From positions 129,378 to 193,377 of the forward strand of contig JBBTWP010000003.1 of NCBI GenBank assembly GCA_038062675.1: a stretch of 64,000 nt of DNA, in the 5' to 3' direction. Below, piece after piece: positions 1 to 60,698 of the stretch (positions are counted from its first letter, which is position 1; each line of letters begins with the position of its first letter). Below the pieces are notes generated by a model. It did no database searches and had not been told where the DNA came from. It saw nothing but the letters and a program-made list of their open reading frames with translations. The DNA comes from Patescibacteria group bacterium (GTDB taxonomy: Bacteria > Patescibacteriota > Minisyncoccia > Phycocordibacterales > UBA1550). The translations under genes were made by a program, and so were the position numbers.

Positions 1-435
1 TCCTATCGCACCCAAAAGTCCGTTTGCCGGCGTCGTCGCTCCAACACCGGCAAACGCAGGAGGGGATCCATATCGGGAGCCGATTGAATAACAGTCGCTC
101 GACACGCTCCTTTTTTTAGGGCGCCACGCCTTCTCCTGCGGAAGGCTCGCTAATCCTCGGCGCTTTTCGTGCAGATTACTGCACGAACCAAGCAAAGCGC
201 CTGCGGACCCTGAAAAAAGGAGGTGTCTCGCTCTAAGTGCATACAAACTAGTTTGGGATGAAGGTTTTTGGAGCCTTGCGCAGCCTGACGAGGCGAGCGG
301 AGCAATTCGCCAGCAGGCGAATATGCGTGCCACAAAAACCTTCATCTCAAATGAGTTCTGTTTTTAAACTTCAGTCGTACCCTTAAAACGACACAGCGAG
401 CAAAGAGTTCCGCAGTTTGGTCGCGCTTAACGGAC
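1..435. other. GC-rich non-coding leader region with several hairpins, including a 15-bp inverted repeat (256-270 / 333-347) enclosing about 60 nt. Candidate structured RNA or regulatory region.
   Basis: No convincing ORF (the 150..335 minus ORF has no supporting motifs). GC content is visibly above the local average. The arms gatgaaggtttttgg and ccaaaaaccttcatc are perfect reverse complements. Confidence 0.3.
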
Positions 436-461
436 TTGCGCGACACGATTCCGCAGAATCG
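419..461 (+). promoter_or_regulatory. Copy 1 of the conserved bipartite element: hairpin GGTCGCGC...GCGCGAC followed by palindrome CGATTCCGCAGAATCG (446-461). It sits upstream of a TATAAT (487-492) and the PrgI-like gene.
   Basis: The same architecture recurs at 33832-33876 and 44776-44820. A -10 TATAAT lies 25 nt downstream, followed by an ATG at 499. Confidence 0.55.
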
Positions 462-498
462 AGTTTTTTATTCTCTGCGCATGCGGTATAATAATTGT

Positions 499-927
499 AT
501 GCAGTTTCACATCCCTCAACATCTTGAGATCGAAGATAAAATTTTTGGTCCGCTTACCATAAAGCAAGCGATTTACAGTGCTGGTGGGGCAGGGGGAGCA
601 TTTCTCATTTACAAAATCGTTCCTTCTGTTTTTTTTGCAGCTCCACTCATAGTCCTACTCGGCGCACTGACATGGGCGCTCGCATTCTATCCGGAGGAAA
701 AGCTCGGTAAACCATTTATCGAAATCCTTGAATCCGCAGTAAAATATTTTTTTGGCGAAAAACTTTACACGTGGAAAAAAACAAAAAAAGATGTTGCTCT
801 CGGAGAAGAGCAGGAGTTCATTTCAGCAAAAGGCCCTTCTGTTCCCATGGTTTCAAAAGGGGGACTTGCCTCCAAGTCATTTGACCTCGATGTAATCAAA
901 ACGGGGGAGAAACAAGAAAAATTATAA
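499..927 (+). CDS. PrgI-family small membrane protein (T4SS component; VirB3 functional analogue). The start is probably at 499 rather than the track's 436.
   Basis: The KIFGPLTIKQ motif is typical of the PrgI family, and two hydrophobic helices follow. The track ORF 436..927 would begin inside the upstream palindromic element. TATAAT-N6-ATG at 487-501 suggests a leaderless start. Confidence 0.5.
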   Translation: MQFHIPQHLEIEDKIFGPLTIKQAIYSAGGAGGAFLIYKIVPSVFFAAPLIVLLGALTWALAFYPEEKLGKPFIEILESAVKYFFGEKLYTWKKTKKDVALGEEQEFISAKGPSVPMVSKGGLASKSFDLDVIKTGEKQEKL

Positions 928-16355: not shown

Positions 16356-16450
16356 GGTGTAATTTAAAAATCTCTTGAGGTGAAATCTCGAGAGATTTTT
16401 GTTGTACGCCTTTTGAAGGGAAAGGGATCTTTTGGAAATGAAAGCGGGGG
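16356..16450 (+). repeat. 95-bp direct repeat, copy A. It contains the hairpin aaaatctcttgagg-tgaaat-ctcgagagatttt.
   Basis: About 96% identical to 17861..17955. A partial third copy of its 5' end (ttgtggtgtaatttaaa) lies at 16253-16269. Confidence 0.8.
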
Positions 16451-16544
16451 AGGTGAGGCAGCTTTTAGATTTGCTGCCAATTTATAGCCATGGTTTATAT
16501 AGCTATTTTCCACAAAAGAAAGATTTGCTATTTTTTTAGCAATT

Positions 16545-17860: not shown

Positions 17861-17955
17861 TGGTGTAATTTAAAAATCTCTTGAGGTGAAATCTCAAGAG
17901 ATTTTTGTTGTACGCCTTTTAAAGGGAAAGGGATCTTTTGGAAAAGAAAGCGGGG
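17861..17955 (+). repeat. 95-bp direct repeat, copy B.
   Basis: See copy A. Together the two copies bracket the AAA+ gene. Confidence 0.8.
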
Positions 17956-17968
17956 ATGGTGAAATAAG

Positions 17969-33516: not shown

Positions 33517-33831
33517 ATTCAACTTTTTGGGCAATTTGGAGTATACGAGTATAAGTAGTGTCATCGCGACCATAGAGGAAATAATTAGAAAAAAATAGAC
33601 CCAATATCGTTAAAATTGTTCTTTTTTCTGATATTTTAACGAAAATGATTGACTTAATCGTTAAAATTAGTGAGGTGGCGCCAGCGAACCGGTTTTTCTT
33701 GGTAATTTGGTTGGCATGAGTATTGTACAGGTATAATACGAGTATAAGTATACTTGTTGTGGGGTGCATGAAATTTAGCTTGTAAAAATCATATTTGAAA
33801 TAAGGCAAAAATGAAATAAAACGCGGGGGAG

Positions 33832-33876
33832 GGGTCGCGCTCAAGGGATCTTTTGCGACCCGATTCCACAGAATCG
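33832..33876 (+). promoter_or_regulatory. Copy 2 of the conserved bipartite element: hairpin GGGTCGC…GCGACCC followed by palindrome CGATTCCACAGAATCG.
   Basis: See 419-461. Lies about 10 nt upstream of TAAAAAT and an ATG at 33904. Confidence 0.55.
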
Positions 33877-33903
33877 AAAATTCCTTTAAAAATAAGCAGA
33901 AAA

Positions 33904-34299
33904 ATGCTAGAGTTTGGGGATAATATGGGAATTTTTGATATATTAAGCAGTGCGGCAAAGATAGCTAAGGAATCTGGTAAACTAGAATTACAAGGGGAGA
34001 TTTTGGGTGTTTATGAAAAACTTTTGGAGCAACAAAAGAAAATTTCGGATTTAGAAACTGAGAATCGAGAACTGAAACAACAACTTAAGACAAAAGAAGC
34101 TCTTGTTTTTGAAGGTAATGTTTATTGGATAAATGACAATGACAATGACAAAAAGAATGGACCTTTCTGTAAAATTTGTTATGAAAAAGAGAATAAGATG
34201 ATCACTTTAGATATTGGAAGCTTTGGTTTTGGTTCATCGAGAAATCTAGATTATTATCAATATCATTGCTTGGTATGTAAAAATTATTTTAAGAAATAA
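33904..34299 (+). CDS. Small coiled-coil protein with a C-terminal 2xCxxC Zn-ribbon. First gene of the R-M operon. The track ORF starts at 33853, inside the element.
   Basis: CKICYEK…CLVCKNYF. Abuts the mod start codon. Confidence 0.45.
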   Translation: MLEFGDNMGIFDILSSAAKIAKESGKLELQGEILGVYEKLLEQQKKISDLETENRELKQQLKTKEALVFEGNVYWINDNDNDKKNGPFCKICYEKENKMITLDIGSFGFGSSRNLDYYQYHCLVCKNYFKK

Positions 34300-34300
34300 A

Positions 34301-36400
34301 ATGAAACTCACCGACAACGAAAAACGAGATGTGATGAAGTATTTGGAGGCGGGGAAACCGCTTCCGGAGAAGTATCGGTTCTTGCTGTTTGGAGATGCGC
34401 AGGAGGTGGAGCTACTTTGGAATGGGAAGACGAATGAGGTGACGAATGTAGTGTTGCCGTTTCAGACTATTGAGCAGATAGATGAGCCGAGGAGCAATGA
34501 GAAGTTTGGTAATCAAGCCTCACTTTTTGATATGTCGGGTAGGCAGATAACTGGCTGGACTAATAAATTGATTTGGGGCGACAACAAGCTCATTCTCTCG
34601 TCGCTCAAAAATGGTCCGATGCGAAAAGAGATAGAAGCGCAGGGCGGTTTGAAATTGATTTACATCGACCCGCCGTTTGATGTGGGCGCGGATTTTTCTA
34701 TGGATATTACGATCGGTGAAGGCGAGGATGGTGAAAGTTTTACTAAAAAACCGTCGGTGATAGAAGAAATCGCCTACCGTGATACTTGGGGCAAGGGCGC
34801 GGACAGCTTCATTGCGATGATTTATGAGCGTTTGAAATTGATGCATGATTTGCTTGCGGAGGATGGGAGTATTTATGTGCATTGTGATTGGCGGGTAAAT
34901 AGTCACATGAGACTGGTTCTTGATGAGGTTTTCGGGAGGGATAACTTTATTAGTGAAATAATTTGGTATTACCAGAATGGCGGAGGGCGTTCGAAGTCTT
35001 CATTAAGCAGACAGCATCAAACCGTACTCTGTTATAAAAAAGGAGATAATTACCTATATAATTCTGTAGATATGGCAGTTCCATACAAGGAGACAAGTAT
35101 GTATTCTAAATATGGAATCACTAGTGAGGCAGACAAGAAGTATAGTGCATCTGAGGGTGGAAAAAATATGGATGATGTTTGGGTTATAGATTTAATTAAT
35201 CCATCTGCAAAGGAAAGGACTGGATACCCTACACAAAAACCCGAGAACTTTATTGAAAATATCATTAAGGCATCTTCAAACGAAGGCGACCTCGTTGCTG
35301 ATTTCTTCTGTGGTTCGGGCACCACGCTTGCTGTTGCGGAAAAACTTGGCAGAAAATGGATTGGTTCTGATTTGGGGAAATTTGGTATACATACATCGCG
35401 CAAGCGATTGATTGGTGTACAGCGTGAACTCAAAAAGGCGGGCAAGGATTTTCGCGCATTTGAGATTTTGAATGTGGGCAGGTACGAGCGCGAGAACTTC
35501 CTTGCGGTCAATGACGACCTGCGCGCGGAGGAAAAAGCAAAGCAGGCAGAGCGAAAAGAAAAAGAGTTTGTGAAGCTCATCATTTCGGCGTATAAAGCGG
35601 AACCAATCTCGTCTTTTGAGACGATGATAGCAAAGAAGCGCGACAGATTGGTCGCGATCGGACCTATCAATGCGCCTGTTTCAGGGAAATTCATCGAGCG
35701 TATCATCAAGGAATGCGGAGAGAACAACATTACCAAAGTGGATGTCCTCGGTTTTGATTGGGAGATGGGCTTTGACCGCCATGAGTTTGGCAATAGCGGT
35801 ATCGATATTGCGCTCAAGGTCATTCCTAAAGAAGTGTTTGATAAACGCGCGGTGGAAAGAGGACAGGTGAAGTTTTATGATGTGGCGTTTATTGAGGCGA
35901 AGCCAATTATTGCAGGCAGGGGGAATATCAAGGAGCTTTCCATTGAGCTTGCCGACTTTTCTGTTTTTTACAATCAAGATGACTCGGGTGAGATAGCAGA
36001 GGCGCTTCGCCCTGGGAGCTCCAAGGTGGTGGTAGAAAACGGGCAGGTGATAAAGCTCAGCAAAGATAAAGTGACGGAGGCGGTGACGCGAGAGATTTTG
36101 ACGAAAAAATGGAGTGACTGGATAGACTACTGGGCGGTGGATTATGATTTTGCGGACAGAAAAGAGATAATCAAAGTCGTAGAAGATGGCGAGGAAAAAG
36201 AGGTGTGGACAGGCGACTACATTTTCGACAACGAGTGGCAGAGTTTTCGTACAAAAAGAGCCTTTCGAAGTGGTAAATATCAAGATATCGAGCTCGTCTC
36301 TGCGCCAAAGGAGATGCAAAAAGGGACTTACAAAGTGGCGGTAAAGGTCGTGGACATTTTCGGGAATGATACAACGAGGGTGGTGGAGGTTAAGATATAA
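34301..36400 (+). CDS. mod: Beta-class N6-adenine/N4-cytosine DNA methyltransferase with the layout of a Type III R-M Mod subunit.
   Basis: Motif IV IYIDPPF precedes motif I FFCGSGTT (beta-class order). Res partner downstream. Confidence 0.8.
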   Translation: MKLTDNEKRDVMKYLEAGKPLPEKYRFLLFGDAQEVELLWNGKTNEVTNVVLPFQTIEQIDEPRSNEKFGNQASLFDMSGRQITGWTNKLIWGDNKLILSSLKNGPMRKEIEAQGGLKLIYIDPPFDVGADFSMDITIGEGEDGESFTKKPSVIEEIAYRDTWGKGADSFIAMIYERLKLMHDLLAEDGSIYVHCDWRVNSHMRLVLDEVFGRDNFISEIIWYYQNGGGRSKSSLSRQHQTVLCYKKGDNYLYNSVDMAVPYKETSMYSKYGITSEADKKYSASEGGKNMDDVWVIDLINPSAKERTGYPTQKPENFIENIIKASSNEGDLVADFFCGSGTTLAVAEKLGRKWIGSDLGKFGIHTSRKRLIGVQRELKKAGKDFRAFEILNVGRYERENFLAVNDDLRAEEKAKQAERKEKEFVKLIISAYKAEPISSFETMIAKKRDRLVAIGPINAPVSGKFIERIIKECGENNITKVDVLGFDWEMGFDRHEFGNSGIDIALKVIPKEVFDKRAVERGQVKFYDVAFIEAKPIIAGRGNIKELSIELADFSVFYNQDDSGEIAEALRPGSSKVVVENGQVIKLSKDKVTEAVTREILTKKWSDWIDYWAVDYDFADRKEIIKVVEDGEEKEVWTGDYIFDNEWQSFRTKRAFRSGKYQDIELVSAPKEMQKGTYKVAVKVVDIFGNDTTRVVEVKI

Positions 36401-36402
36401 AA

Positions 36403-38019
36403 ATGAAAACTTCAATCGAACAATTAGATAGTTGGCTACAAAATCAAGAGGGTTTGAATCTTGAGTTTAAAAAAGCAGAAAATAGTTTTAGCAATACTGA
36501 GCTTTTTAATTACTGCAGTGCGTTGTCTAATATGGGCGGTGGAAAGTTAATTTTCGGCATTGAGCCCAAAGAACACAAAGTTGTAGGGACTAACCTGTAT
36601 TGTGGTACTTTCAATATTATCCCGAATCAGATTTTTCAAAAGCTCGGTGTCCGTGTTGACATAGAAGAAATAGAGCACCCTGATGGCAGAGTTTTAATTT
36701 TTCACATACTGGATCATTACATCGGGAAGCCAATAAAATCAAATGGAACCTACTGGATGCGGTCAGGGGAATCGCTTACGCCTATGGACGAACAAACTCT
36801 TAGGAATAAACTTAATCAACATGAGCAAGATTTTTCGGCTTCAGTTGCCACTGGAGTCACTTTTTCTGATTTAGACAACGAGGCAATTTCTGTTTTGCGA
36901 AATATTCTCATAAAAAATAACAAGAAGACACTCACTGACCTAAGTGATACGAAATTGCTTACGGCCCTTGAGCTGACGACAGAGAAGGGTGTGACTTTTG
37001 CAGGGCTTATTTTACTCTGTAAGAAAGAAAAGATTGATGAATTGCTTCCTTGCTCAGAAATTATTTTTGAATGGCGACAGGAGGAAAAAATCAGTCATGA
37101 TTTTCGCAAAGAATGGAGGGAATCATTTTTGAAAATATACGATGACATATGGAAAACAATTAGCGATAGGAATAGTCGCATTCCAATTCAAGAAGGGTTA
37201 ATACAAAGCGAGATCCTTGCGTTCAATGAAAAAGCCATAAGAGAGGCACTTTTAAATGCAGTCACCCATAGAGACTATTCTGTCCAATCGCAATCCGTGT
37301 TCATTAAAGCAGATTCTAAAAATTTAATAGTGATTAGTCCGGGCGGGTTTCTTCCTGGCATAACACCAGACAATGTAATAGATAAACAAGCATGGAGAAA
37401 TCGCAGACTTGCGGAAGTCTTTCAAAAATTAGGGCTTGTTGAACGGGCAGGTCAGGGGATGAACCAAATTTTTGAAACCACTATTCGTGAAGGGAAAGGA
37501 CTCCCTGATTTGTCAAAATCAGATGACTTCCAAGTTGTGTTAGATATGCCAGCGAGAGTAAAAGATAAAGACTTCATCTTGTTTTTGGAAAAAATTTCTC
37601 ACGAAAGACAGACAATTTTTTCTTTTGAAGAAATATACGAACTAGAATTATTGAGAGAGAATAAGGTTGTTAATAATCTAAAAAATAAGAATAAGTTTTT
37701 AGAATTAGGTATTATTGAGAAAATTAACAAAACTAGTGGTACAAAATATATTTTATCTCACAAATATTATAGGTATGAAAATAAGCCAGGTGTTTATACG
37801 AGAATAAAAGGGTTAACGAGAGAACATAAGAAAGAATTGATTTTGAAACATATAGAAAGAGAAGGTAGTGGAAAGAAAAAAGATTTTAGGGATGCATTCC
37901 CAGACTTGAAAGTAAGTGATATTTCTAATTTTCTTCAAGAATTAAAAGACGAAGGAAAGATTCAACGAAAAGGTTCAGATAGGGCAGGATATTGGGTGCT
38001 TGGAGATAGTCCGAATTAG
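36403..38019 (+). CDS. AlbA_2 (Schlafen-like) N-terminal domain plus HATPase_c_4 C-terminal domain protein (the so-called RecG-like putative transcriptional regulator), located between mod and res.
   Basis: LEFKKAENSF…NMGGGKLIFGIEP (AlbA_2). ALLNAVTHRDYS…NRRLAEVF…ERAGQGMNQI (HATPase_c_4). Confidence 0.65.
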   Translation: MKTSIEQLDSWLQNQEGLNLEFKKAENSFSNTELFNYCSALSNMGGGKLIFGIEPKEHKVVGTNLYCGTFNIIPNQIFQKLGVRVDIEEIEHPDGRVLIFHILDHYIGKPIKSNGTYWMRSGESLTPMDEQTLRNKLNQHEQDFSASVATGVTFSDLDNEAISVLRNILIKNNKKTLTDLSDTKLLTALELTTEKGVTFAGLILLCKKEKIDELLPCSEIIFEWRQEEKISHDFRKEWRESFLKIYDDIWKTISDRNSRIPIQEGLIQSEILAFNEKAIREALLNAVTHRDYSVQSQSVFIKADSKNLIVISPGGFLPGITPDNVIDKQAWRNRRLAEVFQKLGLVERAGQGMNQIFETTIREGKGLPDLSKSDDFQVVLDMPARVKDKDFILFLEKISHERQTIFSFEEIYELELLRENKVVNNLKNKNKFLELGIIEKINKTSGTKYILSHKYYRYENKPGVYTRIKGLTREHKKELILKHIEREGSGKKKDFRDAFPDLKVSDISNFLQELKDEGKIQRKGSDRAGYWVLGDSPN

Positions 38020-38102
38020 TAGATTCCGAATGTATTTAGTAGAAAAAATGACAAAAAATGACAAAAAATAAGGGTGTGAATAAGTAGTAAATCAAATAGT
38101 TT

Positions 38103-40805
38103 ATGGCCCTACACAAAAATTTCCCAAAAGACCCATACGCGATTTTAGACCCCGAGATTAGGTGGTTTCCTGCTGACGAGGATTTGCGCGAGAAGGGTTT
38201 TGATAAGCTTATTCCACCGCTTGTGGCTGATTTGCGCAAGAAAGTGAAGGAGTGGCGGGATATGCAGTACGAGGGCGCAAGCGACACATCGAAAGCGCTC
38301 CTGAACTGGTGGTTTAAAGAAGAGCATGTTATATACAATGCAGATGGATCGTCGTTTAACTTTCGTTACTATTTTGCACAAAGGGAAGCACTGGAGACGG
38401 CGGTGTGGCTCTATGAGGTGGCGAAAGTGAAGGATAAGCATGATCTCATCCGCTACAATTCTACCGGCGTTCTGAGTGCGCAGATGTTCCCCGAGGAGTG
38501 GCTTCGCTTGGTGATTAAAATGGCGACAGGTGCCGGCAAGACAAAGGTGATGAGCCTTGTGGTTGCGTGGGCGTATTTTCATAAAAAATACGAGGCAGAT
38601 TCGAATCTCGCAAAGAATTTTCTTTTGATAACGCCGAATGTTATTGTTTTTGAAAGAATTAAAAATGATTTTGAAGGTTTGAAGATATTTTTTAGCGACC
38701 CTGTTTTACCTGACAATGGTTATCAAGGGCAAAACTGGCAGGATGATTTTCAGGTCACGCTTCACTTACAGGATGACTTGCGAAATGTTTCTGACACAGG
38801 TAACATATTTTTGACGAACATTCACAGAGTATTTGAGAGTGATGTTCGTGTTGCAAGTCCTGACGACGAAGACACAACAGAGTATTACCTTGGGAATAAA
38901 CCTGTAGCAAAAACGAATGATTCAACGGTTGATTTGGGGATGATTGTGCGTGATATTGATGAGCTCATTATTATTAATGACGAGGCACATCATGTAAGAC
39001 CAAAGACGGCTTGGTATAAATCAATCGAGGATATACATAACAAATTGAAAGCAAAGGGCTCAAAGCTCTCTCTCCATATAGACGTGACCGCTACCCCAAA
39101 AGATGACGATGGTTCTATGTTTGTTCAAGTTGTATCAGACTATCCTTTGGTAGAAGCAATTCATCAAAATATAGTAAAAATACCGGTGATGCCCGACGAG
39201 GCGAGCCGTGCAAAACTGAAAGAAAATCAAAGTATAAAATTTAGTGAAAAATACAGGGACTACATCAATCTTGGCGTAGAAGAATGGCGTAAAACCTATG
39301 AAGAATTAAAGCAGATGAATAAAAAATCGATTCTTTTTATTATGACCGACGACACAAAGAATTGTGATGAAGTGTCAGAATACATTCAGGCAAGTTTCGT
39401 GGACTTAAAAGGTGCGGTTCTGACCATTCATACTAACAAGAGCGGGGATATTTCCGAAAGCGTGACGGGGAAGAATAAAGAAGAGCTGGATAAACTGAGG
39501 AAGCAGGCGAACGAAATAGACAGCATGGAAAGTCCGTTCAAAGTGATTATTTCTGTGATGATGCTCAAGGAGGGTTGGGATGTTAAGAATGTTACGACTA
39601 TTGTCGGGCTGAAGCCTTTTACTGCTGAAAATAAAATTTTACCAGAGCAAGCATTAGGAAGAGGTTTAAGGAGGATGTTTTTTGGAAAAGATGCTGAAGA
39701 AAAAGTAAGTGTTATTGGAACACAGGCTTTTATGGATTTCGTGGCGTCGATTAAGAGCGAGGGGGTTGTTCTTGAGAAAAGGGCAATGGGGGAGGGGACA
39801 AAGCCGATCGCACCAATGGTTATTGAGGTAGACAAAGAAAACCCAAAGAAAGATATCGAGAGGTTGGATATTGAGGTTCCTGTGATGTCCCCGAGAATTC
39901 AAAGAGAGTACAAAAACTTAGGAGTACTCGATGTTGCCACTTTTGGAAATGTGAAAGTTCTGGTAAAAACTTTTTCTGAGGAAGAAAAAAGGCAGATCGT
40001 GTTTAAGGAAGTTATCAGTGAAAAAATAAGTCATACGGTTGATTTGACTGGAGAAATTTCCTCTGACTACCAAAGAGTGGTCGGCTTCTTTGCTCAAGCG
40101 ATAATGAGAGAGCTAAGAATGTTTAGTGGTTACGATATTTTGTTTGGCAAGGTTAAGGAATTTATCGAAAAACAGATGTTTGAACAGATGGTAGATATAT
40201 CAGACCTCAATATCTTGGCAAATTTGTCCGAGGTGGAATATGCAAGACTCATTAAGGATTCTTTCAAAAAGGCTATCAATGATCTCACTATAGAGGACAG
40301 TGGTGATACGGAGATTAAAAATTATATTAAAATTAGCGATGCACGCCCATTTGTGGTGAATGATAAATCGTATTTGATATCAAAAAAATCTGTTTTCAAT
40401 AGAATTGTTGGTGACAGTAACTTTGAATTGGAATTTGCTGATTTCCTCGAGGGTTGCGAGGATGTAATTTCGTACGCGAAAAACTTTCAGAACAAAGAAG
40501 CAAGTGCTCTACGGGTTGAGTATAAAAACTCTGAGGGAATGATAGCTAATTATTACCCAGATTTTTTTGTTAAGAAAGATGACAAGACGGTATATATTGT
40601 TGAAACAAAAGGGAGAGAGGAAGCTGACGACAAATTGAAGTTTGAAAGGTTGCAAAAATGGTGTGTGGATGTGAACAACAGACAAACCAAAGTAGTATAT
40701 AAAGCTCTCTACCTAAAACAGGAGGAATGGAACAAGGATAAACTTAGGAATTTTGATGAGGTTGTGAGGGTATTTGGTTCGACCAGTCACAAGAATGGTC
40801 AATAG
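38103..40805 (+). CDS. res: Type III restriction enzyme Res subunit (SF2 helicase plus C-terminal PD-(D/E)xK nuclease).
   Basis: Walker A MATGAGKTKV. DEAH box INDEAHHV. C-terminal YYPDFFVKKDDKTVYIVETKGRE. Confidence 0.8.
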   Translation: MALHKNFPKDPYAILDPEIRWFPADEDLREKGFDKLIPPLVADLRKKVKEWRDMQYEGASDTSKALLNWWFKEEHVIYNADGSSFNFRYYFAQREALETAVWLYEVAKVKDKHDLIRYNSTGVLSAQMFPEEWLRLVIKMATGAGKTKVMSLVVAWAYFHKKYEADSNLAKNFLLITPNVIVFERIKNDFEGLKIFFSDPVLPDNGYQGQNWQDDFQVTLHLQDDLRNVSDTGNIFLTNIHRVFESDVRVASPDDEDTTEYYLGNKPVAKTNDSTVDLGMIVRDIDELIIINDEAHHVRPKTAWYKSIEDIHNKLKAKGSKLSLHIDVTATPKDDDGSMFVQVVSDYPLVEAIHQNIVKIPVMPDEASRAKLKENQSIKFSEKYRDYINLGVEEWRKTYEELKQMNKKSILFIMTDDTKNCDEVSEYIQASFVDLKGAVLTIHTNKSGDISESVTGKNKEELDKLRKQANEIDSMESPFKVIISVMMLKEGWDVKNVTTIVGLKPFTAENKILPEQALGRGLRRMFFGKDAEEKVSVIGTQAFMDFVASIKSEGVVLEKRAMGEGTKPIAPMVIEVDKENPKKDIERLDIEVPVMSPRIQREYKNLGVLDVATFGNVKVLVKTFSEEEKRQIVFKEVISEKISHTVDLTGEISSDYQRVVGFFAQAIMRELRMFSGYDILFGKVKEFIEKQMFEQMVDISDLNILANLSEVEYARLIKDSFKKAINDLTIEDSGDTEIKNYIKISDARPFVVNDKSYLISKKSVFNRIVGDSNFELEFADFLEGCEDVISYAKNFQNKEASALRVEYKNSEGMIANYYPDFFVKKDDKTVYIVETKGREEADDKLKFERLQKWCVDVNNRQTKVVYKALYLKQEEWNKDKLRNFDEVVRVFGSTSHKNGQ

Positions 40806-43486: not shown

Positions 43487-44677
43487 CTAATACAGCGTAT
43501 TCAAATCCTCAACATACCAATTTCCCCATTGATACGTATCAGGATCAAAAAATATACTCATACGCGCAAGTGGATTTTGCGTGTCGATTGCATGCCACAT
43601 TGTCACCGTACGTTCATTGGTAAGAGTAAACTCCATACTGTGAAGATCATATCCCGAGCTCCACCCCGGATATGTTTCGGGACCATAGTACGTCTCGGTT
43701 TTCACTGAAACAAAACGCGGATCCTTGCTTGCCACCCGAATCATATCTGCCTTCGCGCGGTCAGCCTGATTGTCTGCAGTGTTGAGAGGACGAAGGATAT
43801 TCAAGGTAACACCATTCAGTAATGGCATCAACGCATACGTGTTGGTGTTGAAAAAGAAAAGCTGATTTACAGGAGAATATCCCCAACCACTTACTCCGTA
43901 GTATTGCCAAATCTGACCTTGTATCCACCCCAAATCAATTGCAAACTGAAGAGATACGCGGACTCCTTGATATTCCACATACGCTGTAGACGAAGGCGCG
44001 TTTCCTGACATTTGAAATACTATCCATTGCCACGCATTTCCCGGATATGTCACCACATCAGTTCGGTCGGCGACAAACAAGGAAGGAGAGGGGTATTTGA
44101 GTGCCGTAGTAACAGCAAGAGGTGCACGAACATAGCCAGCTCCGCCCGCAGTAATATCGGTATTCATTTCCCAATGCAAGTGAGCATTAGTAGAGTTTCC
44201 TGTCCTGCCAATCGTTGCAACAAGTTGACCTTTTATTACAGTGCCATCCTTCACAATTCCCTTCGCTATGCTATTCAGATGAAAGTAGATACTTTTTATC
44301 TGTTTAGCATCGGGAAGGTTGTAAACAATATGCAACGATATTCCTCCATCCCCAGTGTTTGTAGGATTTATAAATGACACAACCCCGTCAGCAACAGCAT
44401 AGAGAGGATCACCAAGATCGCTATCGCCGCCGCATACACCATTCCAATCTTCGCCAGGGTGATATGAAGTAGGTTTATCCTTAAAACCACCGTAATTAAA
44501 GTGAGTCTGGTCTTTTTTATAACCAATGTCTGGTACACCATCTCCCCCAACACAGTCCCCCCAGCTTTTATCTGCTTGAAACGGCAACTGAAATCCCGCC
44601 GTATTCACCGTTGCTGCATTTGCAGTGGCACATATCACCAACAAACACACTCCCAGAACCACATTTCTTACGTCCAT
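43487..44677 (-). CDS. Secreted M23 (LytM-type) metallopeptidase with a C-terminal accessory domain.
   Basis: Signal peptide. HxxxD-like YHPGEDWNG and the TNAHLHWE motifs of M23. Confidence 0.7.
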   Translation of the reverse strand: MDVRNVVLGVCLLVICATANAATVNTAGFQLPFQADKSWGDCVGGDGVPDIGYKKDQTHFNYGGFKDKPTSYHPGEDWNGVCGGDSDLGDPLYAVADGVVSFINPTNTGDGGISLHIVYNLPDAKQIKSIYFHLNSIAKGIVKDGTVIKGQLVATIGRTGNSTNAHLHWEMNTDITAGGAGYVRAPLAVTTALKYPSPSLFVADRTDVVTYPGNAWQWIVFQMSGNAPSSTAYVEYQGVRVSLQFAIDLGWIQGQIWQYYGVSGWGYSPVNQLFFFNTNTYALMPLLNGVTLNILRPLNTADNQADRAKADMIRVASKDPRFVSVKTETYYGPETYPGWSSGYDLHSMEFTLTNERTVTMWHAIDTQNPLARMSIFFDPDTYQWGNWYVEDLNTLY

Positions 44678-44775
44678 TAGTCATACCTCTTTTGAGTTTA
44701 AAAGAACATATCAGTTGTTTCCAACTGCCCGAGGGGAGTATAGCACAAGTATGTTTTTTTTTGCAAGAAAAATTT

Positions 44776-44820
44776 CGATTCTGCAGAATCGTGTCGCAAA
44801 AGATCCTTTGGGCACGACCC
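44776..44820 (-). promoter_or_regulatory. Copy 3 of the conserved bipartite element, same orientation relative to its gene. The palindrome CGATTCTGCAGAATCG is perfect here. It lies immediately upstream of TTGCAA-18-TATACT.
   Basis: See 419-461. A PstI-site-centred 16-bp perfect palindrome. Confidence 0.55.
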
Positions 44821-44825
44821 CCCCC

Positions 44826-47732: not shown

Positions 47733-50700
47733 ATGAATACCATTATGAAAAAAATACAAACAATCCTTTTAGCTTTCGCACTTTTGGTAGTGCCGACGGC
47801 TTCTTTTGCGGCGGCGCTTAATAATGACGCGCAAGATTTTAAGACATTGCGCGCGGTTAATATTACAAAAAATCCCGGATGTGTCGCTTGTCGTTCGACC
47901 GCGATAACCGCAAATCCGGGGGATGTTCTTGCGTTTTCAATTTACTATCACAATACTGGTCCTGACACAGCAAACAATGTGCGCGTGTGGTTGACTCCAC
48001 AAATAAGTCCATCAGGAACAACTCATTCGTTTGTTGCCAAAGTAAGCGCTGATAATGCTTCGGCGGTGAACGGTACTACTGTTGTCACTCTTTCAGGGAA
48101 TCAAACAATAGATTTTCTTCAGGGTTCAGTAATCTGGTGGCCAAACCAATCAGTAACGACTTCAACTGCGTTTCCTTCTGGACAAACAGGAGCGGAGATT
48201 TTTACGAGTGAGGGCTTGAATCTTGGCTCTATTGCTTCGGGATGGGGGACGCAAGGGGCGGTGAATATGCGTTTTCAGGTTGCTAACACAGGAACGGGTG
48301 GAGGCACACAACTTTCTGTCCCAGTTGTTGCCACTCATGTCGCAACGAATGTTTTGACAGGTTCCGCGACACTCAACGGATATGTTGACCCAAAAGGCAC
48401 AACCGACACGGTGCGCTGGTTTGAATGGGGCGCTGCAACGTCGCTCAATAATACGACATATCAAGTAAGTCAGGGTGGGAGCGCTTCAGATTTTTCTGCG
48501 AGCATCTCCGGTCTTACACAAAATAGTGTTTATTCCTACCGTGCTGTTGCACGCAATGCGCAAGGGACAGTATATGGCAGTGTGATGACGCTTACCACTA
48601 CACGCGTGAGTGAGCCAGTGTACGCACCTCTCGTGTCCACACGTTCTGCCTCAGGTGTTCTCTATGAGACTGCAACACTCAACGGTTTTGTTGATCCAAA
48701 AGGTTCAGCCGATACGGTGCGTTGGTTTGAGTGGGGAAGTTCATCTTCTCTCAATAATTCAACCGCTCGTGTAAATCACGGAAGCTCAGCTTCGAATTTT
48801 TCTGCAAACATTTCTGGACTTACTCAAAACACTACCTACTACTACCGTGCAGTTGCGCAAAATGCGCAGGGGACGGTCAACGGAACTACGATGAGTTTTA
48901 CGACAGAATACTTCAACATACCAGATTACCCCTCAGAAATTCTTGTTTCTACGCGTTCAGCGTCGAATGTTTCCCATACCTCTGCAACACTCAATGGCTA
49001 TGTTGATCCAAGTGACTCGACCGATACTGTGCGCTGGTTTGAATGGGGCAGTTCATCATCCATGAACAACACTACCTACCAAGTAAATCAGGGTAGTAGT
49101 GCTTCGAATTTTTCTGCAAACATTTCTGGACTTACTCAAAACACTACCTACTACTACCGTGCAGTTGCGCGAAATGCACAGGGGACGGTGTATGGCAGCG
49201 TGCTTTCGTTTACGACGAGCTACTCTGGAGGCGGAGGTTACTCAATCCCTCTTGTGTACACACGAACAGCTACAAACATCACCTATGACTTTGCTATCTT
49301 GAATGGACATGTTGACCCAAAAGGCACGACCGACACAATGCGCTGGTTTGAGTGGGGGAGTTCTTCGTACATGAACAACACTACTTCGCGTACCTATCAG
49401 AGCAATAATGCATCAGATTTTTCCGCAAGTATTTCAGGATTGGCACAAAACACCACCTACTACTATCGTGCTGTTGCACAAAATTCTCAAGGAACCGTTT
49501 ATGGGGATATGATGAGTTTTTCAACGAACTACACAGGCGGTGGCAATCAAACAACGTTTGTTCCAGTAGTTTCTACACGTAATGCCGAAGTTTCAGGCGA
49601 CTTTGCTGTCTTGAATGGATATGTCGACCCCAATGGCTCAAATGACACAACTCGCTGGTTCGAGTGGGGTGGTTCACAATCACTGGGAAGCCAGACGAGT
49701 CGTCTTGCTCAAGGAAATGTTGCATCGAATTTCAGCGCAACGCTTTCAAGCCTTGTTCCTAACACCACTTATTATTATCGTGCGATGGCGCGCAATTCAC
49801 AGGGTACGGTGTATGGCAGTGTGCTTTCGTTTACGACAAATAGTTACGGCGGCGGATATACCGGAGCACAAATTGCACCAACCGTGTCAACAACACTTGC
49901 AACTGAGATTGCGGCAAACAGTGCACGCTTGAATTCCCTCGTGTTTTCAACAGGGAACTATCCATCAAACGCGTGGTTTGAATGGGGTACTAACACGGCG
50001 CTTGGCAACAAAACGCAAACCGTGAATGTTGGCTCGCTTCCTTCGGTGCGTCATACCGACGTGATTACCGGACTTGTGCCAAGTGTGACGTACTACTATC
50101 GTGCCGTTGCAGAAAATCCCTATGGAAAGAGTTACGGTTCAATTTATAGTTTTGTGGTGAACCAAACTATTAACACTCCTCCTCAAACACCAACAACAGT
50201 GGTGATAACTCAACCTGCGCGACCAACACCTGTTCGTCCGCAAGTTGTGGTCGTAAGTCCGGGTGCGGGAACAGAGTCATTGGTTGAATTGCTACTTGAT
50301 GGTGGCGCCGATACGATTTCTTCAAACGAAGAGCGAACCTATCGCATCTCGTGGAAAAACACCAGCAAGCAGACATTGAAACGCGTTGTCTTGCGCGCCA
50401 TTATCCCTGCTCAAATGAATTTCAAGAGCGCAAGTACTGGCTCTTTCTCGAGCGAGGGAAACATTGTTACTGTCGATGCAGGGACGTTGACTCCGGGTGC
50501 GATTGGCGAAGCGACGTTTGTCGCGACCACAGAGCGTGGACTTGAGTCAGGAACACTTTTGGTAACAACTGTTAATCTTGTATATACCGATGCGAAGGGT
50601 GGACAGGGAGATGCAGTTGCGTATGTAACCCATCGTGTGGAAGCACGAGACGGTGGACAGGGCGCAAGCCCGTTTGGTGCCGGGTCATTCCTTCCGACAA

Positions 50701-55766: not shown

Positions 55767-56334
55767 GGCTCGTGTTTTTTGATTACAAAAAAGCACTGCG
55801 CCTTGCACACACGTTAAGAAAACCTCCCGCAGGGGAGGTTTTCTTAACGTGTGGTCACGGATAATTTTCTCGTCGTCACTCGAAAATTTCCGCGACCCCG
55901 CCTCACTACCTCGTTTTGTGGTCAGGAATAATTTTGTTTTCGTCACGTGTGGTCACGAATCACTAAGCATTTTTTCGTTTCACTCAAAACTGCAAAGTGT
56001 TCGCGAAGCTTTGCACTTGATCTTCTAACTCGCTTCACTCGTAAGAAGATCTACGCCCGGCTCGTGGTTTTTGATTACAAAAACATCACTGCGCCTTGCA
56101 CAAACTAAAAATCTGCCACAGGGCAGATTTTCTTAACGTTTGTGCACCCAGTAGGGGACGGTCACGAGTTACTAAGTCGCTTCGCTCCTAAGTACTCGCG
56201 ACCCCGGCTCGCACGTCGCAGGGCGACATGGCTCCGCCTTTCGATCCCCAGAGCAAGCCAAGCAGTTGGCTTGCTCTGGGTGCACCAAATAAAAAAACAC
56301 GGAAAGAATCCGTGTTTTTTTATTTGGTGCACCC
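55767..56334. repeat. Degenerate roughly 290-bp tandem repeat zone next to tRNA-Lys. Each unit carries a hairpin with compensatory changes (gttaagaaaacctccc/gggaggttttcttaac vs aaaatctgcc/ggcagatttt). A direct copy of the tRNA 3' end lies at 56142-56158. A 12-bp-stem hairpin lies at 56250-56277. A 57-bp perfect palindrome (56278-56334) embeds the tRNA acceptor 3' end.
   Basis: Direct reading. The left and right 25-nt arms of the palindrome are exact reverse complements. Confidence 0.7.
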
Positions 56335-56400
56335 AGTAGGGATCGAACCTACGACCGTTTGCTTAAAAGGCAACTGCTCTACCAGCTGAGCTATGGGTGC
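56325..56400 (-). tRNA. tRNA-Lys (anticodon UUU).
   Basis: Cloverleaf GCACCCA…TGGGTGC acceptor. T-loop TTCGATC. Anticodon loop CTTTTAA. CCA encoded. Confidence 0.85.
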
Positions 56401-58852: not shown

Positions 58853-58882
58853 AAAAAACACCCGTTGAGGGGTGTTTTTTTG
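58853..58882. terminator. Bidirectional terminator hairpin, copy 1 of an identical 30-nt element.
   Basis: aaaaaacacccgttgaggggtgtttttt. The identical sequence is at 60669-60698. Confidence 0.7.
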
Positions 58883-60668: not shown

Positions 60669-60698
60669 GCAAAAAACACCCGTTGAGGGGTGTTTTTT
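60669..60698. terminator. Copy 2 of the identical 30-nt hairpin. Terminator of the tRNA-Arg transcript.
   Basis: Identical core to 58853-58882, in the same orientation. Confidence 0.65.

Follow-up and report, generated by a model that had tools for sequence, protein, structure and literature searches.

We analyzed a 64,000-nucleotide (nt) stretch of contig JBBTWP010000003.1 from a Patescibacteria group bacterium, referred to below as the window. In the window, the list of open reading frames (ORFs) contains four consecutive, co-directional + strand genes at positions 33925-40805, namely znr, mod, slfn, and res. The mod and res genes encode the methyltransferase and the helicase-nuclease of a Type III-like restriction-modification (R-M) system and are split by slfn, a 1.6-kb gene for a Schlafen protein, while a small zinc-ribbon gene, znr, leads the operon. 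An earlier reading made from the letters alone (the sequence-only reading) had described a Type III mod/res pair interrupted by a gene with AlbA_2 and HATPase_c_4 domains and led by a zinc-ribbon gene, and the ORFs and domain matches confirmed this description.

Gene content of the operon

The Mod protein matched the Pfam family N6_N4_Mtase (7e-52) and the PADLOC model MTase_III (1e-119), and its sequence matches in the PDB were the Mod subunits of EcoP15I (4zcf_A, 2.4e-15) and H. pylori (6k0w, 1.8e-20). Because its DPPF motif (motif IV) lies ahead of FxGxG (motif I) in the translation, Mod is a beta-class methyltransferase, as the sequence-only reading had proposed. The same reading had seen in Res a DEAH helicase with a C-terminal PD-(D/E)xK nuclease, and this too was borne out: the Walker A motif, NDEAHH, and the C-terminal D820...E834-x-K836 were invariant among ten orthologs, and RE_endonuc, weak in the window protein, was matched in nine of the ten. 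Res further matched ResIII (4e-16) and the PADLOC model REase_III (1.4e-17). Neither phmmer nor profile searches found a PDB sequence relative at E <= 1, EcoP15I Res included, and the match to the NCBIfam family BPTD_3080 (2.7e-80) scored 270, below the cut-off of 800; we therefore call Res Type III-like by its predicted architecture and not by proven homology to EcoP15I Res. No hsdS-like ORF was found at the operon in the ORF list or with Pfam, so that the mod-res pair is without a specificity subunit. Type III enzymes act on pairs of unmethylated asymmetric sites in inverse orientation, cleaving DNA in an ATP-dependent manner 25-27 bp from one of the two, and they methylate only one strand (hemimethylation).

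Both domains assigned beforehand to the 538-amino acid (aa) product of the middle gene matched above the Pfam cut-offs (SLFN_AlbA_2, PF04326, 4.4e-11; HATPase_c_4, PF13749, 4.6e-12). Slfn consists of a Schlafen (AlbA_2) RNase-like domain at residues ~16-128, a GHKL ATPase domain at ~275-380, and two winged helices at ~385-535, which by its predicted domains is the architecture named “pSlfn-HisKinase-HTH” or “Schlatpase-HTH” (HTH, helix-turn-helix). No HEPN or ABC domain was matched in it with Pfam, and the PADLOC pAgo model matched residues 40-343 at 1e-8. Searched against the PDB, a profile of 23 homologs retrieved the uncharacterized structure 3lmm (4e-26) and the catalytic lobe of the mammalian proteins SLFN8, SLFN11, SLFN12, and SLFN14. 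An AlphaFold2 (AF2) model with a predicted local distance difference test score (pLDDT) of 76 gave Foldseek matches to 3lmm, SLFN13 (E 1.6e-4, probability 1.0), SLFN11, SLFN14, and SAMD9, and a weaker one to the GHKL-type pyruvate dehydrogenase kinase. In this model, helix-strand winged-helix units lie at residues 389-451 and 473-533, and these matched HxlR (7bzd, probability 1.0) and the winged helices of ESCRT-II with weak E-values.

The catalytic motifs of Slfn were compared across 70 homologs. In the E16-x4-E21-x-K23 motif, E16 and K23 were present in all 70 and E21 in 68, with Asp in the other two, and the GHKL N-box residue N285, P313-G314, and G350-Q-G352 were invariant. Position 55, which aligns with the third active-site carboxylate (D252 of SLFN11 and D248 of SLFN13), was more variable (Asp in 37 homologs, Asn in 18, and Pro in 12); in the window protein it is Pro, next to Glu54. 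Judged from these motifs, Slfn is likely but not certainly competent as a nuclease.

The genes are closely spaced at the 5' end of the operon, where znr ends 1 nt before the mod ATG and mod is followed by slfn after 2 nt (TAA-AA-ATG). The sequence-only reading had given 2 nt as the stop-to-start spacing around the middle gene; this is correct for mod and slfn, whereas 83 nt separate slfn from res. The operon is also compositionally mosaic. G+C content at third codon positions (GC3) in the window is 0.32 for slfn versus 0.51 for mod and 0.43 for res, and slfn, or the cargo gene in its place, was below its flanking mod and res in all nine other loci tested (L002, L010, L019, L031, L066, L161, L164, L170, and L171). 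The GC3 of znr is lower still than that of slfn or other cargo in the window (0.24) and in L164 (0.26), but not in L161.

Recurrence of slfn and variability of the mod-res junction

A scan for slfn homologs covered one genome per species and yielded at least 80 loci, with genes taken as longest-ORF calls; the frequencies below are estimates. At least 16 loci, spread over at least seven phyla, had the order mod-slfn-res with orthologous proteins. By tblastn, 11 of the loci listed (L001, L002, L010, L016, L019, L021, L027, L030, L031, L033, and L066) shared this order with orthologous Mod (54-75% identity) and/or Res (59-77%), and they derive from Nitrospirae, Nitrospinae, delta-proteobacteria, Spirochaetes, Actinomycetota, Gottesmanbacteria, and unclassified bacteria. 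The arrangement was also present in L161-163 and L170-172, and every very close Slfn homolog that was looked up (P0005, P0006, P0007/L161, and P0012) had it. Where no other cargo intervenes, the mod-slfn junction is tight, ranging from an 8-nt overlap to a 6-nt gap with L021 as the exception (103 nt), and the slfn-res spacer measures 39-320 nt across loci.

These results answer the question raised by the sequence-only reading of whether the gene recurs between mod and res in other genomes. That reading had also named a recent unrelated insertion, for example one flanked by target-site duplications and absent from all orthologous R-M loci, as the finding that would overturn it. In the window, slfn was flanked by no direct or inverted repeats or target-site duplications, and the same gene occupies the orthologous loci counted above. 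A recent insertion of this kind was rejected on these grounds and because the arrangement is common to several phyla.

Linkage to Type III genes extends beyond this family. Among 69 full-length Slfn homologs listed, 19 have a Type III-type mod or res next to them, some of these from other families or in other gene orders, which is far above the expectation for a random gene, and the remaining neighbors are heterogeneous and often housekeeping. A further seven loci place Slfn homologs with other Type III families in the order res-slfn-mod (L014 and L017), slfn-mod-res (L018 and L011), or mod-slfn-res with a different Res family. Over the 11 loci, pairwise identities of Slfn were correlated with those of the other two proteins (Res, r = 0.71; Mod, r = 0.79). 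When the distant subgroup was taken by itself, a mirror-tree comparison gave no significant correlation (r = 0.28, n = 21), and the signal of co-inheritance rests largely on the structure between two subgroups. A plasmid search for annotated close Slfn homologs returned only partial matches of ~30% identity.

The spacer between slfn and res contains the motif TGTGAATAAGT, which is conserved in the close subclade and was also found downstream of slfn in L001, L002, L003, and L161-163. Unrelated copies, outside the slfn 3' flank, occur in L066 and in L051 and L075, which are not R-M loci. Since the motif was absent from close res orthologs that carry other cargo, it moves with the 3' flank of slfn and not with res. 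Possible functions are those of an internal promoter or operator serving res, or of a site recognized by Slfn's own winged helices.

To describe the junction independently of slfn, we used a second scan of metagenome contigs centered on Res, which gave at least 80 loci with Res 42-83% identical to that of the window, of which 58 had a readable mod/res junction. In 34 of the 58 listed loci, mod and res abut (2-196 nt apart), and the other 24 hold different cargo between the two genes. Four of the 58 carry distant Schlafen-GHKL genes (23-29% identity), and the remaining cargo includes DUF3800, Bro-N, KilA-N, NYN-PLD, an MNT-HepT (MNT-HEPN) pair, GIY-YIG, PDDEXK_3, and ABC-type AAA_21 ATPases. 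The locus with the closest Res listed (L135, 83% identity) has no cargo; among the 13 listed with Res of at least 65% identity, four are empty and nine carry cargo, in no case the slfn type of the window, although L082 has a distant Schlafen-GHKL gene. At some loci slfn shares the slot with one or two further cargo genes, which include an ABC ATPase in L033 and DUF488 in L066 and L016. Because cargo is varied or absent among orthologous loci, the mod-res junction of this Type III family is best described from its gene content as a promiscuous cargo slot with fast turnover, and it appears rich in predicted RNase and abortive-type modules (NYN, MNT-HepT, and AAA_21 ABC ATPases). The slfn gene is facultative and not a fixed part of the R-M family. 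As a separate observation, two genes with neither annotation nor a Pfam match, for proteins of 146 aa and 243 aa, recur together as cargo in znr-bearing loci (L164 and L168).

The zinc-ribbon leader gene and the surroundings of the operon

As the sequence-only reading had noted, a zinc-ribbon coiled-coil protein abuts mod. Its proposed length of 131 aa was less well founded: the start at 33925 (MGIFD...), which gives 124 aa, is common to all 18 aligned homologs and is more likely. The alignment showed four invariant cysteines (CxxC...CxxC) and a highly conserved N-terminal helix. The family is small, with only 21 homologs in a database of 5.8 billion sequences, one of which, an NCBI entry from a metagenome-assembled genome labeled “Patescibacteria group bacterium”, matches the window protein at 100% identity. 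No family match for Znr was obtained in Pfam, NCBIfam, or PADLOC; its AF2 model (pLDDT 77) consists of a coiled coil and a zinc ribbon, and a fold search with this model found no match in the PDB.

In the window and in all six further contexts examined, znr lies directly 5' of a Type III mod, whatever the cargo. In these contexts the slot is filled by slfn (L161-163), by the 146-aa and 243-aa genes (L164-166), by these two together with WYL and NYN genes (L168), by a 71-aa ORF, by a 197-aa ORF, or by ORFs of 208 and 92 aa. Conversely, znr is missing from the slfn-bearing loci L170 and L171, and tblastn found none in the 160 loci of both scans. The two genes occur independently of each other, and membership of znr in a slfn module was rejected. 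Since znr is linked to mod whatever the cargo and is missing from some slfn loci, it is placed by its gene neighborhoods in the R-M core of one, mostly Patescibacterial, lineage. The sequence-only reading had taken the two extra genes as a sign of a composite defense unit; both do recur with the R-M family, although neither is a fixed part of it.

We also considered whether Znr could be the controller (C) protein of the R-M system. It resembles the HTH_3 regulators of C-protein-controlled R-M systems in being encoded by a small gene immediately 5' of the methyltransferase gene and co-oriented with it, and differs from them in that its coiled coil is joined to a C4 zinc ribbon and no HTH domain was detected by Pfam or NCBIfam. 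Because a separate HTH_3 gene precedes znr in two contexts (L164-166 and L168), Znr should not simply be equated with the C protein. To assign it a function in R-M regulation or assembly would be a guess. In contigs from Yonathbacteria and groundwater, a large serine recombinase or tyrosine integrase gene lies just upstream of the HTH_3-znr-mod-...-res unit; such genes near znr in L164, L166, and L167 suggest that the unit rides on an integrative element in these contigs. No recombinase gene adjoins the operon in the window.

The operon lies behind the second of three copies of a palindromic element of ~50-70 nt, as the sequence-only reading had stated. The element contains the inverted repeats GGTCGCG...GCGACC and CGATTC-CACA-GAATCG and the core CGATTCnnCAGAATCG, for which 0.02 chance matches would be expected. 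The three copies have the same orientation relative to the gene they precede, which is a PrgI-family member for copy 1, the first gene of the znr operon for copy 2, and one for an M23 peptidase for copy 3. Because it precedes the PrgI-family and M23 genes as well and was absent from all 169 related loci, the element was rejected as an R-M-specific regulatory site; a structured RNA was likewise rejected, because Rfam gave no match and the predicted fold was no more stable than those of shuffled sequences (z = -0.95). From its placement, the element is probably an organism-specific, promoter-associated operator, and the operon looks like one that has come to sit behind it.

The neighbors of the operon are ordinary genes, encoding an archaeal-type S-adenosylmethionine synthetase, an S51 peptidase, a T2SSE/PilB ATPase, an FtsK-gamma protein, and an M23 peptidase; the operon is a stand-alone insert and not part of a large defense island. 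Elsewhere in the window, a ~306-321-nt unit is present in six tandem copies (67-83% identical), which presumably encode a repeating domain of ~103 aa within a large protein. We also noted a 101-nt direct repeat (95% identical) with a palindrome inside, two identical 28-nt terminator-like hairpins (AAAAAACACCCGTTGAGGGGTGTTTTTT), and a perfect palindrome with 28-nt arms.

Table 1. Positions of the features discussed, in the window and in related loci
Feature	Sequence	Position	Strand	Description
Palindromic element, copy 1	window	435-472	+	5' of PrgI-family gene
PrgI-family gene	window	436-927		
Palindromic element, copy 2	window	33827-33895	+	directly 5' of znr operon
znr	window	33925-34299	+	124 aa; N-terminal helix, coiled coil, C4 zinc ribbon
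mod	window	34301-36400	+	699 aa; beta-class DNA methyltransferase, Type III Mod subunit
slfn	window	36403-38019	+	538 aa; Schlafen/AlbA_2, GHKL ATPase, two winged helices
slfn-res spacer	window	38020-38102	+	83 nt
TGTGAATAAGT	window	38075-38085		within slfn-res spacer
res	window	38103-40805	+	900 aa; superfamily 2 DEAH helicase, C-terminal PD-(D/E)xK endonuclease, Type III-like Res
M23 peptidase gene	window	43487-44677		
Palindromic element, copy 3	window	44757-44825	-	5' of M23 peptidase gene
101-nt direct repeat	window	16356-16456; 17862-17962		
Tandem ~306-321-nt units	window	48323-50127		six copies
Perfect palindrome	window	56276-56336		28-nt arms
Terminator-like hairpins	window	58853-58880; 60671-60698		28 nt each
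TGTGAATAAGT	L001	2822; 2887		non-coding spacer 3' of slfn
TGTGAATAAGT	L002	7011; 7076		non-coding spacer 3' of slfn
TGTGAATAAGT	L003	1673		non-coding spacer 3' of slfn
TGTGAATAAGT	L161	13189		non-coding spacer 3' of slfn
Cargo example (among L081-L160)	L083	7084-7908		
Cargo example (among L081-L160)	L087	7075-7986		
Cargo example (among L081-L160)	L104	2594-3451		
Cargo example (among L081-L160)	L117	844-1719		
Cargo example (among L081-L160)	L147	3966-4442		
Cargo example (among L081-L160)	L152	3356-4831		
Cargo example (among L081-L160)	L154	3076-3908		
Unannotated gene pair	L164	11640-12819		146 aa + 243 aa
Unannotated gene pair	L168	2820-3999		146 aa + 243 aa
Recombinase/integrase gene	L164	6667-8226		upstream of HTH_3-znr-mod unit
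Recombinase/integrase gene	L166	1194-2753		upstream of HTH_3-znr-mod unit
Recombinase/integrase gene	L167	154-1005		upstream of HTH_3-znr-mod unit
BREX-related locus	L079	6438-18417		slfn between SNF2-NOV_C and DUF1156 genes

Possible roles of Slfn and comparison with known systems

The reading we favor, with about even confidence, is that of a Type III-like R-M operon whose mod-res junction serves as a slot for interchangeable accessory defense genes and is occupied here by a Schlatpase-HTH gene. The unit would then be composite in the sense of a core R-M system with plug-in accessories, and the case for a functional coupling between Slfn and the R-M system seems to us evenly poised. If the two are coupled, Mod would methylate self DNA and the Mod-Res complex would cut unmethylated invader DNA as a first line. 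Slfn, translationally coupled to mod and made alongside it, would be kept latent as an ATP-dependent, GHKL-mediated oligomer. Its winged-helix/GHKL module would sense an infection cue, either DNA ends or structures arising from restriction or the failure or inhibition of restriction, and turn Slfn into an active RNase, most likely acting on tRNA. Translation would stop, providing a second, abortive layer of defense, and znr would act as a cargo-independent, lineage-specific leader of the R-M core, most likely controlling R-M or aiding in its establishment. A stronger version, in which Slfn is a true third component of the Type III machine, the junction a general socket for abortive effectors, and Znr a new type of R-M controller, appears unlikely. 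If Slfn were such a component, it would monitor the state of Mod/Res, or the DNA ends that these generate, and convert failed or inhibited restriction into tRNA cleavage, forming a PrrC-like guard from unrelated parts. The most common class of prokaryotic Schlafens would thereby gain the activation mechanism that it has lacked.

Several observations weigh against a coupling of Slfn to the R-M system. No close homolog of the window slfn stood at any of the 58 listed junctions, close Res orthologs (75-83% identity) have no cargo or different cargo, and the fast turnover of the slot argues against an obligate association. About half of the 80 closest Slfn homologs listed have unrelated or housekeeping neighbors, and in the Slfn tree, which was built by neighbor joining without bootstrap, copies embedded in Type III loci are interspersed with solo ones; both speak against an obligate interface of Slfn with Mod or Res. 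The low GC3 of slfn is consistent with cargo that may have been exchanged independently of, and more frequently than, the core. Pro55 at the position of the third carboxylate leaves nuclease activity less than assured, and tRNA cleavage, ATP-dependent oligomerization, and defense are known from Schlafen architectures other than the stand-alone Schlatpase-HTH, to which they would extend by analogy.

Such a pattern could also arise if slfn were an autonomous hitch-hiker, that is, a self-contained sensor-effector that sits in a recombination-friendly slot, bounded by the conserved 3' end of mod and the 5' end of res, and uses the operon promoter with no functional link to R-M. We regard this as possible, if on the unlikely side. 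It would fit a slot that holds many unrelated genes or, in most of the listed orthologous loci, none; Slfn homologs of ~55% identity that stand alone among housekeeping genes; and the GC3 of slfn and the 3' motif TGTGAATAAGT, both of which set slfn apart from res. It fits less well with the repeated independent linkage to different Type III families in several gene orders, the equivalent placement in DUF1156/SNF2 systems, the tight translational coupling of slfn to mod, and the correlated divergence of Slfn with Mod and Res. Moreover, of seven pSlfn genes assayed by themselves, protection came only from the DUF262 and Ig-like fusions and not from the HisKinase type (PMC13056530).

Two further accounts remove the RNase from the defense role. 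The winged helices of Slfn might control transcription of the R-M genes, for example of res via TGTGAATAAGT, with the Schlafen and GHKL domains acting as a sensor of a ligand or nucleic acid and not as a toxin, as in the older COG2865 annotation “transcriptional regulator”. R-M systems commonly need controller proteins, and the two C-terminal winged helices together with a conserved motif in the slfn-res spacer would suit such a role. We nevertheless consider it improbable, because the 70 homologs hardly vary at Ex4ExK and the ATP-binding motifs, most orthologous R-M loci work without slfn, some related loci already have an HTH_3 controller-like gene upstream, and characterized Schlafen relatives are RNases (PMC13056530, PMC13462974). 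Alternatively, slfn might be a decayed passenger kept by linkage alone after its nuclease function was lost in this lineage, as Pro55, shared with 12 of the 70 homologs, might indicate. This seems very improbable: the ORF is intact and full length, close relatives are 72-85% identical over their whole length, every other motif is invariant, and the adjacent Glu54 could substitute.

Compared with the classical Type III enzymes EcoP15I and EcoP1I, the operon likewise encodes a beta-class Mod and then a helicase-nuclease Res and lacks an S subunit, and its Mod is detectably homologous to that of EcoP15I. It differs from them in the 1.6-kb gene between mod and res, in the leader gene, and in a Res with no detectable sequence similarity to any PDB chain. 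A precedent for a latent tRNase embedded in an R-M locus is PrrC of EcoprrI, which is released by phage anti-restriction (PMC3710099). As in this Type Ic system, and with RloC, an RNase joined to an NTPase regulatory domain is encoded inside an R-M operon. However, the proteins are not homologous, since Schlafen stands in place of HEPN, a GHKL in place of an ABC ATPase, and Type III in place of Type I, and the resemblance would be one of functional analogy only.

Homologous proteins are encoded in BREX and BREX-related loci, where Schlafen-HisK-wHTH (wHTH, winged HTH) genes have been read as backup suicidal effectors (PMC12839542). Like slfn in the window, the homologs of this kind in our loci (36-42% identity) lie inside an operon with a methyltransferase and a nuclease/helicase, whereas the host system in the window is a two-gene Type III R-M system. 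Our scan listed slfn homologs in 7-11 BREX-related loci of the type SNF2-NOV_C / Slfn / DUF1156 / HEPN-DUF499, in which the gene is directly 3' of the helicase-nuclease gene and 5' of the methyltransferase gene, with a small ORF intervening in some. In seven of them (L051, L052, L058, L059, L078, L079, and L080), slfn lies between genes for SNF2-NOV_C (~1176 aa) and DUF1156 (~893 aa), and a HEPN-DUF499 ATPase gene follows the DUF1156 methyltransferase gene. The copies embedded in BREX-related loci form a separate clade in the Slfn tree. In SLFN-pAgo, GHKL drives an ATP-dependent tetramerization that gates the SLFN tRNase (bioRxiv 10.64898/2026.05.29.728809); the RzAgo protein shares the Schlafen-GHKL supradomain with Slfn, which has winged helices instead of the Argonaute sensor.

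The architecture of Slfn itself is widespread. The pSlfn-HisKinase-HTH type accounts for 19% of prokaryotic Schlafens (PMC13056530, Taboada et al. 2026), and 58.6% of 103,533 Schlafen proteins have a GHKL domain, of which more than 90% also have an HTH (bioRxiv 10.64898/2026.05.29.728809). The 2026 literature describes Schlafen-ATPase-HTH proteins as the commonest prokaryotic Schlafens and as closely linked to both R-M and BREX. Prokaryotic Schlafens are described as tRNA-cleaving antiphage effectors controlled by fused sensors (PMC13056530, PMC13462974), and the second of these reports describes Schlafen-ATPase-DNA-binding proteins as “tightly associated” with R-M and their activation mechanism as unknown (PMC13462974). 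Slfn resembles pSlfn-HisKinase-HTH, Schlatpase, and the R-M-associated “Cluster 7” (PMC13462974) in its three-part architecture, its Ex4ExK motif, its GHKL domain (PF13749), and the reported tight association with R-M loci. The association of this Schlafen class with R-M is thus already in the 2026 literature, and the locus is a clear example of a recognized kind of layered phage defense and not a new system. The association given in the accessible parts of the Schlatpase literature is at survey level, and the specific placement between mod and res in a Type III family is not described there. Relative to the literature consulted, the present locus adds that placement in one Type III family, the junction as a variable cargo slot, and a mod-linked zinc-ribbon gene. 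The compact, widely conserved mod-slfn-res cassette, together with natural sister cassettes that are empty or carry other cargo, offers a ready-made genetic system in which the dependence of Schlafen-GHKL proteins on an R-M partner could be examined and the trigger of these most abundant prokaryotic Schlafens sought.

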